Shown: in pieces, positions 3,373-15,471 of the stretch
How the letters are laid out: each line of letters opens with the position of its first letter
Position numbering within the stretch: the stretch's first letter is position 1
Virus record (IMG/VR): IMGVR_UViG_3300025012_000071
Length of the DNA: 20,000 nucleotides
From: an uncultured virus (IMG/VR IMGVR_UViG_3300025012_000071)
Lineage: Duplodnaviria > Heunggongvirae > Uroviricota > Caudoviricetes
Direction: 5' to 3' (one strand)
The notes under the pieces: generated by a model
The model's input: the letters and a program-made list of their open reading frames with translations, nothing else
Database searches by the model: none
Told to the model about the DNA's origin: nothing
Program-made: the position numbers and the translations under genes

Positions 3373-4059
3373 ATGAGAGTGGTTGTAAGTGTGTCGGGAG
3401 GCAAAGACTCTACTTATTTAACGGCATATGCTCTTTATAGATATGGTCGAGAAAATTGTATCTTTGTTAGTGCTGACACTGGTTGTGAGTTTCCAGAAAC
3501 ATACGAATACCTGAACTATCTCGAAATAAAGTTGGGTATAAAAATACATCGCATTAAAAGCGATAAGTGGGATTATTTTTCTTACTGCCGACATAGAAGT
3601 AAGTTTCCTGATGCTAGAAATAGATTTTGTACGTCAGACTTAAAACAAGCACCATTAACTAAATGGATAACTAGCGCAGGTATAGACCGATACGATGACA
3701 TAATGCTAACAGGTGAGCGCAGAGAGGAAAGTAAAAAGAGGTCAACTTATCAGGAACATTATTATAACCAAAAATTGAGAATTGGCGGTTGTCGTCCGCT
3801 ATTAAACCTAACAACCGGAGATATATTTACGGGGATTAGACAGGCGGGACTTGTGCCCAATCCGGTGTATAAGCATTTTACTAGACTTGGTTGTTATGGA
3901 TGCATTTTTAATACTATTGACGAGTGGGTTCAGTTGAGTAAATTCTACCCTGACTTATTTAGTAAAATTGCAGATCTGGAAAATGAGATTGGTTACACTG
4001 TCCGGCAAGGAGAAACATTGAGGCAGTTAATTAGTCGCAAAGAAAGGGATTCAGCATGA
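3373..4059 (+). CDS. phosphoadenosine phosphosulfate reductase-like (CysH/DndC family) PP-loop protein
   Basis: SVSGGKDS PP-loop, DTGCEFPET, RFCTSDLK, GERREES..R, RLGCYGC. Confidence 0.9.
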   Translation: MRVVVSVSGGKDSTYLTAYALYRYGRENCIFVSADTGCEFPETYEYLNYLEIKLGIKIHRIKSDKWDYFSYCRHRSKFPDARNRFCTSDLKQAPLTKWITSAGIDRYDDIMLTGERREESKKRSTYQEHYYNQKLRIGGCRPLLNLTTGDIFTGIRQAGLVPNPVYKHFTRLGCYGCIFNTIDEWVQLSKFYPDLFSKIADLENEIGYTVRQGETLRQLISRKERDSA

Positions 4060-7845: not shown

Positions 7846-8054
7846 TGTTGCGTAGTATTGTTATTGAAACTGTACTTTTAGTTTACGGTTGCTCACTGGA
7901 AATACATTTACCGCTTTGGAAACAGCACTCATTCAACGGCAGAGCAAATTTCCGCAGCAATGGCAGTAACTTTTGCCGGAGTCATTTTCGCAGGCCTCGC
8001 GCTAATCTGTGGTCGGGGCAGAGAAAAAGGCAACAAAGTGATCAACAATGTTAA
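7842..8054 (+). CDS. hypothetical protein, frame uncertain
   Basis: AAGGGGG SD; an alternative frame gives a more hydrophobic C-terminus. Confidence 0.3.
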   Translation: MMLRSIVIETVLLVYGCSLEIHLPLWKQHSFNGRANFRSNGSNFCRSHFRRPRANLWSGQRKRQQSDQQC

Positions 8055-8905
8055 AGTTTTATGTATCTAAAAACAATAACAGACTTAACCGCCGCCCGTG
8101 GGTTCCTGAGTATATAACTGACAACCTTTGCCTTAACCCTATATATAAGACGGTGAGAATATATAGGGGGGGGGTGAACGTCCTCCTTGACTCAGGAGCG
8201 TTCCAAGATGTTGATAAGGATAAAAGACTGACGTATGAAGAAGCACTTAATCGTCAACTCAATTTTGAGCAGGCGGCAGGTTTTGTGTCTCAGCGAATAG
8301 TCAGTTATGACAGGTTAGTTGACGAGCAGTTGAAAGAAGGTAAAAAGGTAAAATGTCGCGTTGACGAGGACAACGGTTGGGAATACGTCAAAGACACTGT
8401 GGGAGCTGCACAGTATTTAGTTAGTCAACGGGATAAATTAGCACCTCGTCAGTTAGTTTTGTCTAATCAGGGTACGACTACAGAACAATATTTGACCTGT
8501 CTAAAAGAGGTGTTACGCATAGCGCAACCGCAGGACTGTATTGGGATGGGTGGGTTTTGTATAATCGGGGCGAGAAAAACACTACAACCGCAATTTTTTG
8601 AAATACAGGAGAAGTCATTTCCGCTAATAAAAGATGCCGGCATAACCGATATTCACCTGTTCGGGGTAACTGCTATACCTGTACTTGAAAGATGGGTAGA
8701 AATAGCAAGACCATATGATTTTAATCTCAGCGTTGACAGTTCATCAGCAGAGCGCAGATCAGTTTTTGGTGGTGTATTTAGTCCCGACACTGGCAAATGG
8801 GAAGCGAAATACACCAGACAAGACAAGTATATTAACTATCATCCGAGGGACTTAGCATTAATCAATACAATAAACTTTAGGGATTATTTGGAGGGCATAG
8901 CGTGA
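8048..8905 (+). CDS. tRNA-guanine transglycosylase-like (TGT/DpdA-like) protein
   Basis: LLDSGAFQ, NQG, IGMGG, IHLFG, SVDSSS TIM-barrel motifs; no C-terminal CxCxxC zinc site. Confidence 0.8.
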   Translation: MLKFYVSKNNNRLNRRPWVPEYITDNLCLNPIYKTVRIYRGGVNVLLDSGAFQDVDKDKRLTYEEALNRQLNFEQAAGFVSQRIVSYDRLVDEQLKEGKKVKCRVDEDNGWEYVKDTVGAAQYLVSQRDKLAPRQLVLSNQGTTTEQYLTCLKEVLRIAQPQDCIGMGGFCIIGARKTLQPQFFEIQEKSFPLIKDAGITDIHLFGVTAIPVLERWVEIARPYDFNLSVDSSSAERRSVFGGVFSPDTGKWEAKYTRQDKYINYHPRDLALINTINFRDYLEGIA

Positions 8906-9417
8906 TAGTATTTCTTTACGTAGCGGCAATTTTGGCCGGAAATTGGTTATCTAGCACCTTCGCACCCGTAAACATTGGCCCATTTTTAATAAGTTTAGGC
9001 ACATTTACGATAGGGGCAACTTTTATTCTCAGGGACTTAGTGCAACAAAAACATGGCAGATATATGACATATGCGTTCATAAGTGTAGCACTTCTTTTAT
9101 CACTGATACAATCGGCAACAATGGGACAGGGTTTACCCGTGGTCATTGCTTCTATAATAGCATTTGCGGTAAGCGAAACAACCGACACTGAGATTTACAC
9201 GAGGTTAAAACTGCCGGTCCACTGGCGTGTGTGGTGGTCAGGTTTCGTTGGAGGAATACTTGACAGTACGGTGTTTATTGTGCTTGGACTATCACCTTGG
9301 GGTATGGGATTTATGCCTTGGTCAGTAGTTCCGATGGCGATAATTGGACAATCGCTGATAAAGTTAACTATGCAGGCAGTCGGGGCAGGTATGGTAAAAA
9401 TGGGAGGTCGTAAATGA
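8902..9417 (+). CDS. VUT/YhhQ-family queuosine-precursor transporter
   Basis: Multi-TM protein with GATFILRDLVQ, ASIIAFAVSETTD.EIY and S..VGGILDSTVF motifs; GTGA-coupled to the TGT-like gene. Confidence 0.85.
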   Translation: MIVFLYVAAILAGNWLSSTFAPVNIGPFLISLGTFTIGATFILRDLVQQKHGRYMTYAFISVALLLSLIQSATMGQGLPVVIASIIAFAVSETTDTEIYTRLKLPVHWRVWWSGFVGGILDSTVFIVLGLSPWGMGFMPWSVVPMAIIGQSLIKLTMQAVGAGMVKMGGRK

Positions 9418-14460: not shown

Positions 14461-14691
14461 TTAGGTAGTCGCGGACCTGGTGAAAATGTTGGCATCACCT
14501 CGGAAGTAGCAGTATTCACCCCCTCGCATTTCACGAATTACTGCATCCTCGCTGGGGTAAGTCCAGGTATTGCCGTTTTTGAACTCAAACTTTTGGCGGT
14601 AAGCAATTAACGCTTGCTTTGCCGGCAAGGTGTAAACTGCCAGTTCGGAAATGTTGCCTTGCTCGTCTAGTAGCATTATTGTTGTTGTCAT
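14461..14691 (-). CDS. hypothetical protein
   Basis: AAAGGAGG SD. Confidence 0.7.
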   Translation of the reverse strand: MTTTIMLLDEQGNISELAVYTLPAKQALIAYRQKFEFKNGNTWTYPSEDAVIREMRGGEYCYFRGDANIFTRSATT

Positions 14692-14753
14692 TGATATTCC
14701 TCCTTTGCCTCAACAAAACCCCTCTCTAAAGGAGTTATGCGTGTGCGGTGCGC

Positions 14754-14816
14754 TTTGTCTGTCATCCTCAGAGCAGGTAGACAAATTCCTGCTGACCGGG
14801 CGAACCCGGTTTCGAC
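14754..14816 (-). ncRNA. type II hammerhead ribozyme with loop I/3'-tail pseudoknot
   Basis: GUC-GAA-ACCGGG-UUCG-CCCGGU-C^AGCAGG-AAUUUGUCUA-CCUGCU-CUGAGGA-U-GAC-AGACAAA; predicted cut between 14794 and 14793. Confidence 0.88.
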
Positions 14817-15034
14817 TAACCTTCCAGGTAGATTTCCATGTCTGCGCCTGTGTAGCATTGTTCCGTCTTACTGTACCAGTTCCCTTCTTCCTGCACATAC
14901 ATGGTGTGGTCGTGCAGGTTTAAGATTGCATCCTCTGGAATTTCGACTTCAACTGTGGTTTTAGCAGGTATTACAGTTTCGCCTAAGTCGGTAACTACCG
15001 TGATGTCGATGTTCTCGCCGTTGTGAATTTTCAT
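14816..15034 (-). CDS. acidic hypothetical protein flanked by two ribozymes
   Basis: GAGGGGG SD; 72 aa. Confidence 0.7.
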   Translation of the reverse strand: MKIHNGENIDITVVTDLGETVIPAKTTVEVEIPEDAILNLHDHTMYVQEEGNWYSKTEQCYTGADMEIYLEG

Positions 15035-15066
15035 GTGTGTATCCCCCTCGTATTTAGTTTTAACTT

Positions 15067-15127
15067 GCCACCTCCCCCGAAGGGGAACGCTTGCGGCTTA
15101 AGGCTGTTTAGACTCTCCGCAAAGAGT
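15067..15127 (-). ncRNA. pistol self-cleaving ribozyme
   Basis: ACUCU-UUGCGG-AGAGU-CUAAACA-GCC-UUAAG-CCGCAA-GCGU-UCCCC-UUCG-GGGGA-GG^U-GGC; P1, pseudoknot, P2, P3 and linkers match the pistol consensus; predicted cut between 15071 and 15070. Confidence 0.93.
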
Positions 15128-15352
15128 TTATTCAACAAAATCAATCTTATAAGTAGATGGTTCGCCGTTTTCCCAAAAGTAGGGGTTTTTTCTTATCTCT
15201 AGGTCGAATCCCATTATCCTGAGTGCCTGCTTTATCCCGGATAGTTCGTGGTCAATTCTGGTTACTCCGGTTTCGCCTTTGCAGTGCTTATTATTTATGT
15301 CCAACAGGGATAGTTTGTTGTTAACCAGTTCCCTTACGTTAGTTATGCTCAT
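15128..15352 (-). CDS. hypothetical protein, first gene of the leftward operon
   Basis: GAGGGG SD downstream of a promoter. Confidence 0.7.
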   Translation of the reverse strand: MSITNVRELVNNKLSLLDINNKHCKGETGVTRIDHELSGIKQALRIMGFDLEIRKNPYFWENGEPSTYKIDFVE

Positions 15353-15401
15353 TCAGTGCATCCCCTCTCGTTGTTATTTTGTTGCTGTGTTCCATGTGCT
15401 T

Positions 15402-15471
15402 ATACTATCATGTGGATACCCATACCGTCTAGCCCGATTTAACGTCATATTCAGCTATTTATGGATACCCA
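15402..15471 (-). promoter_or_regulatory. promoter with TGGATACCCA operator boxes
   Basis: TAGACG-18-(TGn)TAGTAT; boxes at 15413-15422 and 15462-15471. Confidence 0.6.

Follow-up and report, generated by a model that had tools for sequence, protein, structure and literature searches.

Do a pistol and a hammerhead ribozyme that flank a single small gene cut the RNA of a phage operon and, if so, into what? The question is raised by a locus in 20,000 nucleotides of DNA from an uncultured virus (IMG/VR IMGVR_UViG_3300025012_000071; this whole stretch is called the window), in which a reading frame of 72 codons, ORF72, lies between the two elements. A sequence-only reading of the DNA had proposed that the downstream element was a type II hammerhead with an extra nucleotide in its core and that, together with the pistol, it would free ORF72 as a discrete RNA that a ligase could close into a circle. 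These proposals were followed up by covariance-model searches and by comparison with viral relatives and with known ribozyme systems.

Architecture of the hammerhead

The hammerhead, delimited by the Rfam model RF02276, by the covariance model R2 (see below) and by the MFE fold, occupies positions 14748..14817 of the minus strand, beginning with the conserved A that precedes stem II and ending with the 3' tail. All positions in this section are on that strand. Its parts follow one another in the permuted order of type II: GAAA, stem III, the cut, stem I and CUGANGA. Stem II is open and has three base pairs, formed by GUC (14816-14814) and GAC (14763-14761); G10.1-C11.1 (G14763-C14814) is followed by A-U and C-G, and an extra U (14764) separates this pair from A9. 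The core residues G12 A13 A14 are at 14811..14813 (aligned to the Rfam consensus), and next comes stem III, a hairpin of 6 bp (14810-14805 with 14800-14795, counting the A15.1-U16.1 pair at 14810/14795) with a UUCG loop (14804-14801). H17 is a C (14794), and hammerhead numbering and alignment place the predicted cut at 14794/14793, before A1.1 (14793). Stem I is a hairpin (14772..14793) of 6 bp (14793-14788 with 14777-14772) with a 10-nt loop. It leads into C3-A9, which reads CUGAGGA (14765..14771), with G at N7. Finally, UUUGUCU in loop I (14785-14779) and AGACAAA in the 3' tail (14760-14754) can form a pseudoknot of seven Watson-Crick pairs, where a type II hammerhead calls for at least four.

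All the defining residues of a hammerhead core are present (C3 U4 G5 A6 N7 G8 A9, G12 A13 A14, A15.1-U16.1 and H17). The core, GUC triplet, stems I to III and UUCG loop listed by the sequence-only reading were all found where it had put them, on the minus strand, and it had also correctly seen that the element begins at the TAG of the upstream ORF: this stop occupies 14818-14816, and stem II starts with its G. In an 81-nt stretch the MFE and centroid folds are both a three-way junction in which loops close stems I and III and stem II is left open, while the fold energy of the same stretch showed no advantage over shuffled sequences (z 0.07).

As far as the available text of Perreault et al. 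2011 (PMC3088659) goes, the permutation, the core and the pseudoknot are those of the type II hammerheads of bacteria and prophages (RF02276), which likewise lie between small genes of phage origin. In the RF02276 consensus two letters stand between A9 and the tail, whereas the window has the extra U and a 3-bp stem II.

Detection by covariance models

An Rfam Hammerhead_II search had been named as a check on the element, and its outcome was mixed. When 91 nt were searched, RF02276 matched over its full length (model 1-66 of 66, at 14817-14753) with 36.3 bits and an E-value of 1.5e-6, or about 3e-4 when scaled linearly to the whole window. This score, from a model that leaves the pseudoknot unscored, is 0.7 bits below the gathering cut-off of 37 bits, and a scan of the whole window at the gathering cut-off reported no hammerhead. 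None was reported at E <= 10 either, in 14600-15250 (651 nt) or in the nearest virus record, G001. The misses at larger scale result from the speed filters and the threshold, as the 91-nt search, with laxer filters, finds the site.

A second covariance model, R2, was built from ten unrelated viral hammerheads, with the window left out. Run with filters off over all 20 kb, it gave the site 55.2 bits (E 1.1e-11); the runner-up in the window scored 8.5 bits. The window and G001 (37.7 kb) have one pistol and one hammerhead apiece.

Covariation among viral relatives

Viral contigs were scanned with three patterns in which the motifs GUC-GAAAC, GUC and CUGANGA were fixed. With any one letter before GAC at least 125 loci were found and with no letter at least 130; with this position left free there were 136 matches, of which 70 passed a crude stem filter, 69 of them distinct. 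A model seeded with eight equal-length sequences, chosen after MAFFT had misaligned two hammerheads of differing stem length, then aligned 109 hammerheads (106 distinct) from 90 sources.

Stems I and III, to which the alignment was fitted, are paired in 98.4% and 99.2% of cases respectively across the 106 distinct viral relatives, with changes on both sides in 6/6 pairs of stem I and 4/6 of stem III. The pairing of stem II is uninformative, being fixed by the search pattern. The pseudoknot helix is absent from the model behind the alignment; it is paired in 71% of cases, and six of its seven pairs are changed on both sides. The covariation score was 0.639, against 0.135 in shuffles (0/500 reached it) and at most 0.076 with partners slid. 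The best loop/tail helix (n = 102) had a mean of 4.65, and of 3.37 when the tails were shuffled. Covariation across these relatives is seen in both closed stems (I and III) and in the pseudoknot that joins loop I to the 3' tail, and the 7-bp pseudoknot that had been read from the letters of the window is borne out.

The full-length match to RF02276, the R2 match and the covariation together uphold the assignment to a type II hammerhead with a U inserted after A9. It belongs to a common subgroup in which stem II is GUC/GAC, loop I pairs with the 3' tail and a U bulges out between A9 and G10.1. Its G at N7 is the rarest choice, seen in 2/106 aligned relatives.

The pistol and the surrounding genes

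Upstream of ORF72, at 15066..15127 on the minus strand, a pistol ribozyme was identified with RF02679 (46.5 bits against a cut-off of 34.5; model 1-68 of 68). P1, P2 and P3 are present, as is a G-U cleavage step at 15071/15070. The predicted cut, G15071/U15070, agrees with the cleavage position that a review gives for pistols, a G-U step with P3 on one side and the 3' strand of P2 on the other. The window pistol scores lower than the 60-67 bits of its relatives, has C where the well-conserved AUAAA linker begins with A and, by eye, retains the P1-loop pseudoknot with letters other than those of the consensus. The identity, architecture and conservation of both ribozymes were observed directly in the present comparisons.

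The genes around the ribozymes are on the same strand. ORF74 (74 codons, 15128..15352) is upstream, and its TAA (15130-15128) abuts the first base of the pistol. ORF72 itself (14816..15034) has relatives at 9 viral loci and 13 homologous proteins, none functionally named, and no match in Pfam or PHROG. Its protein is very acidic by manual count, with 15 Asp/Glu, just 3 Lys and Arg absent altogether; among the early proteins of phages, small acidic ones often mimic DNA or counter host defences. Downstream is ORF76 (76 codons, 14461..14691), preceded by AAGGAGG at 14705-14699 and with 10 related loci. A promoter-like module at about 15395..15425 contains a TG-extended -10-like stretch (about 15420-15395) that was seen by eye and is not listed by a consensus promoter scan; the same stretch recurs directly upstream of the ORF72 relative in contig L008. 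The module would drive ORF74, the pistol, ORF72 and the hammerhead as one transcript.

From about 15830 down to 9882 the minus strand has some twenty small ORFs, almost without family matches. The two ribozymes lie in a putative leftward operon of tiny genes, the expression of which is probably early. The window has genes for small and large terminase, a C5 methylase, a PAPS-reductase-like protein, a thymidylate-synthase-like protein and RuvC, and by this gene content it is a fragment of a tailed phage. A blastn search against GenBank phages gave no match. The stretch was present in 13 public runs, all of DNA, from 6 studies of groundwater or soil; no RNA run is listed as containing it, and one metatranscriptome run has next to none of its words.

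At 8048-9417 (plus strand), with 3373-4059 (plus strand), there is a weak match to queuine tRNA-ribosyltransferase (PHROG, E 3.8e-4) beside a transporter-like ORF of the Vut_1 family, and a gene with a PAPS-reductase domain is nearby. This neighbourhood hints at a possible module for DNA or nucleotide modification.

The position of the hammerhead at a stop codon is a general one. A stop triplet overlaps the hammerhead start or is at most 7 nt from it in 80/90, 109/123 and 51/65 cases (loci in L011-L390), and therefore a terminating ribosome would cover the 5' part of the ribozyme. Often the stop at the start of a type II hammerhead is a TAG whose G also belongs to stem II. Several viral contigs (L082, L106, L069, L341 and others) each have three or four type II hammerheads, spaced by a few hundred bases; many of these multi-copy hammerheads are of a short subtype whose stem I hairpin has 17 nt and whose stem II has 4 bp (GGUC/GACC), and in which a pseudoknot between loop and tail is not evident.

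Relatives of the locus

Relatives of ORF72 allow the two junctions to be compared. In L002-L004 both flanks are as in the window, over a region that is identical. L006 has the pistol upstream and, downstream, a canonical hammerhead (CUGAUGA-GAC; 36.2 bits with Hammerhead_II), the closest canonical relative without the extra U; its stem III is swapped for a different paired sequence, and its loop I and tail have compensating changes on both strands with which the pseudoknot still pairs. L005 has no pistol upstream, and its downstream hammerhead (36.1 bits) has the same core and extra U with a different paired stem III. In L008 and L009 the promoter-like stretch is upstream of the ORF and a pistol (62.3 bits) replaces the downstream hammerhead, while L007 and L010 have the ORF with no ribozyme on either side. 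Relatives of ORF76 have an upstream ribozyme at varying distances, a pistol in 5/7 of the loci searched and a hammerhead in 1/7. The class and position of the ribozymes are, on these comparisons, evidently mosaic in this phage group, because relatives of ORF72 have a pistol, a hammerhead or neither at its two junctions, and relatives of ORF76 a pistol or a hammerhead upstream.

In L005 a segment upstream of the ORF72 relative, at 1443-1478, occupies the place of the window's pistol and resembles the 5' half of a type II hammerhead. It comprises GUCGAAAC, a 7-bp hairpin, GUC and letters like the start of stem I, with no CUGANGA half after them; it extends into the end of the upstream ORF and contains the TAG of that ORF. 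It matched neither Rfam nor R2. The idea that this half borrows the 3' half of the downstream hammerhead was rejected, stem I being out of register, and it may be a recombination scar.

Proposed processing of the transcript

The best explanation of the locus, and one that is quite likely to be right, is a functional type II hammerhead of a tailed phage that works with the pistol to cut the operon RNA into single-gene pieces. Each ribozyme would fold and cut itself while the operon is transcribed, and the polycistronic early RNA would be split into single-gene mRNAs. The first piece would comprise ORF74 and, at its 3' end, almost all of the pistol. The second, predicted by arithmetic from the two sites as 14794..15070 on the minus strand, would be a 277-nt mRNA with a 36-nt leader containing a Shine-Dalgarno sequence, then ORF72, then stem III at the 3' end; the length of about 277 nt in the sequence-only reading follows correctly from cuts at 15071/15070 and 14794/14793. 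The third would be the downstream RNA, starting with the stem I hairpin. Hammerhead and pistol cleavage both leave 5'-OH and 2',3'-cyclic phosphate ends; the ORF72 mRNA would begin its leader with a 5'-OH and end in a cyclic phosphate, and the downstream RNA would begin with a 5'-OH. The likely effect would be to uncouple the stability and translation of adjacent genes. Cleavage in vivo, co-transcription and an effect on expression are what we infer from the arrangement.

Such an arrangement has precedents. Pistols are found in association with both phage genes and further ribozymes (Harris et al. 2015, PMC4604425), and the phage-gene ribozyme clusters of Weinberg et al. 2015, as related in the accessible part of Harris et al. 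2015, are matched by the window, where a pistol and a hammerhead are about 250 nt apart on one strand. In those clusters, too, ribozyme classes are interchangeable at similar sites, and the part available reveals no essential difference, the present examples being viral contigs from groundwater and soil. According to the text available of Perreault et al. 2011 (PMC3088659), clustered prophage hammerheads flank single genes and are active both in vitro and in E. coli; their proposed task was to cut long phage transcripts into mRNAs of one gene each, differing in stability or translation. The triple hammerhead that flanks ardA in an Agrobacterium tumefaciens prophage, as described there, likewise brackets single small genes of a long phage transcript; all three of its ribozymes are hammerheads, whereas in the window a pistol forms one boundary and the gene in between belongs to no known family. 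According to a review, a benefit of such RNA processing has never been shown for any phage.

It is also conceivable, if rather unlikely, that the ribozymes are real and their main role is other than simple constitutive processing of mRNA: they might act as switches under regulation, mark the borders of exchangeable gene cassettes, or give phage RNAs ends that evade a host nuclease or sensor. The mosaic of ribozyme type and position among close relatives would suit such a role, as would the apparent hammerhead 5' half of L005 at the place of the window's pistol, which is what a recombination scar would look like, and it has been suggested that phage hammerheads cleave in a regulated way (Perreault et al. 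2011, PMC3088659, in the portion available). The hammerhead of the window, however, has no ligand-binding or extra domain and is a minimal motif, like type II hammerheads that are constitutively active, which counts against such a role.

The extra U after A9

Were the hammerhead a decayed, inactive copy, spoiled by the inserted U, the 3-bp stem II or the G at N7, only the pistol would work. Its score below the Rfam cut-off fits such a copy, and core insertions at other places (A6a, near C3) reduce activity, according to the literature available. This reading has very little chance of being right.

In the scan with the position before GAC left free, the 69 distinct hammerheads comprised 50 with GAC directly, 12 with U and GAC (one of these being the window's own lineage), one each with A, C and G before GAC, and 4 of other form. 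The stem filter had dropped 66/136 matches, at least 4 of which resemble real hammerheads with bulged stems, all 4 without the extra letter. Roughly a sixth of the viral type II hammerheads with such a stem II carry the extra U. Across the 106 distinct aligned hammerheads the letter at the extra position is U in 98, G in 2, A in 2 and C in 1, with none in 3; a single extra letter is U in 98 of 103. The layout with a letter between A9 and GAC, found in 103/106 aligned relatives, was itself required by the search pattern. In contig L341, copies with and without the extra U, otherwise alike, are found side by side. The Rfam cut-off was passed by 8 of 22 hammerheads with an extra letter and, in 20 loci, by 3/3 rows (2 distinct) without one.

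A repeated coding sequence in L016, L017, L033 and about 15 more loci fits the hammerhead pattern by chance; it has C at the 'extra' position and no stems, and is the source of most non-U letters in the raw count.

The extra U is on these data a frequent, selected variant within the type II family and no defect, because U predominates among single insertions (98/103), recurs in the free scan (12/69), occurs beside insertion-free copies in L341 and is compatible with scores above the Rfam cut-off (8/22). By the first two of these counts the insertion is no rarity. Against decay it may be added that about a hundred distinct viral hammerheads have the insertion, nearly always U, with covarying stems intact. 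N7 is free in the published consensus (Perreault et al. 2011, PMC3088659, as far as available), and 2-bp stem II is common among type II hammerheads in the accessible literature.

The viroid precedent cited by the sequence-only reading proved sound. The available part of a review reports an extra A10 between 9 and 10.1 in the CChMVd (+) hammerhead, exactly the same core position, and the change of A10 to U, the letter found in the window, gave 3-4 fold more trans-cleavage. In PLE hammerheads, too, a nucleotide between 9 and 10.1 is conserved, according to the text available. The CChMVd and PLE hammerheads are of type III or type I, from a viroid and from eukaryotic retroelements, and lack the loop I/tail pseudoknot; the window hammerhead, in contrast, comes from a DNA phage, and its variant is frequent rather than singular. 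The hammerhead insertions listed in the accessible literature are after A6, after A13 and near C3, with none after A9. An A9/G10.1 insertion is not named in the available text of PMC3088659, and a phrase search of the literature for it returned unrelated papers only. No statement of the frequency of the U insertion was found in the literature available.

Fate of the ORF72 RNA

With both ribozymes taken to be active, the predicted ORF72 RNA might simply be a linear mRNA, as proposed above, or its ends might be joined. The sequence-only reading had raised the second course, with an RtcB-type ligase; if the host supplied it, the product would be a circular, translatable RNA. It is established that the ends left by both ribozyme classes suit RtcB, the fragment is a complete gene with its ribosome-binding site, and L006 shares the pistol-ORF-hammerhead order. 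Ribozyme-generated circles, though, are bounded by ribozymes of the same class, and their joined ends rebuild a helix; viroid-like RNAs and retrozymes are of this kind, compact and highly paired. The unit in the window is unlike these, its ends coming from ribozymes of different classes, its fold being no better than that of shuffled sequences (z -0.02 for the 277-nt RNA) and no helix bringing its ends together. The same ORF is found elsewhere with a hammerhead remnant upstream (L005), with only a downstream pistol (L008, L009) or with no ribozyme (L007, L010), and relatives have ribozymes at other junctions. The 2011 study examined prophage hammerhead clusters for products that were circular or spliced and, by its available text, detected none. 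No gene for RtcB or an RNA ligase was found in G001, which says little, as that record is 53% complete. On this evidence the circularisation of the RNA of about 277 nt finds no support and has scarcely any chance of being correct. If true, it would make the ORF72 mRNA a nuclease-resistant and repeatedly translatable message of a DNA phage for a very acidic early protein.

That the hammerhead is a chance resemblance in non-coding DNA, as its shuffle-like fold energy and the silence of Rfam at window scale might suggest, has a negligible probability and is ruled out by the E-value of 1.1e-11 with the independent model R2 and by the compensating changes that keep the structure in relatives.

Significance

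For annotation there are two practical points. A standard Rfam scan misses the hammerhead of the window and 14 of 22 other hammerheads with an extra letter, and viral type II hammerheads often have a single U inserted after A9 (12/69). The hammerhead and the pistol are real, and the locus adds one example to the known phage ribozyme elements. Since 2011 it has been asked what self-cleaving ribozymes do in phages. The locus is a compact test case for this question, as it combines a single promoter-like site and three tiny genes with two ribozymes that differ in class, and its natural relatives supply the ribozymes swapped, moved or missing.
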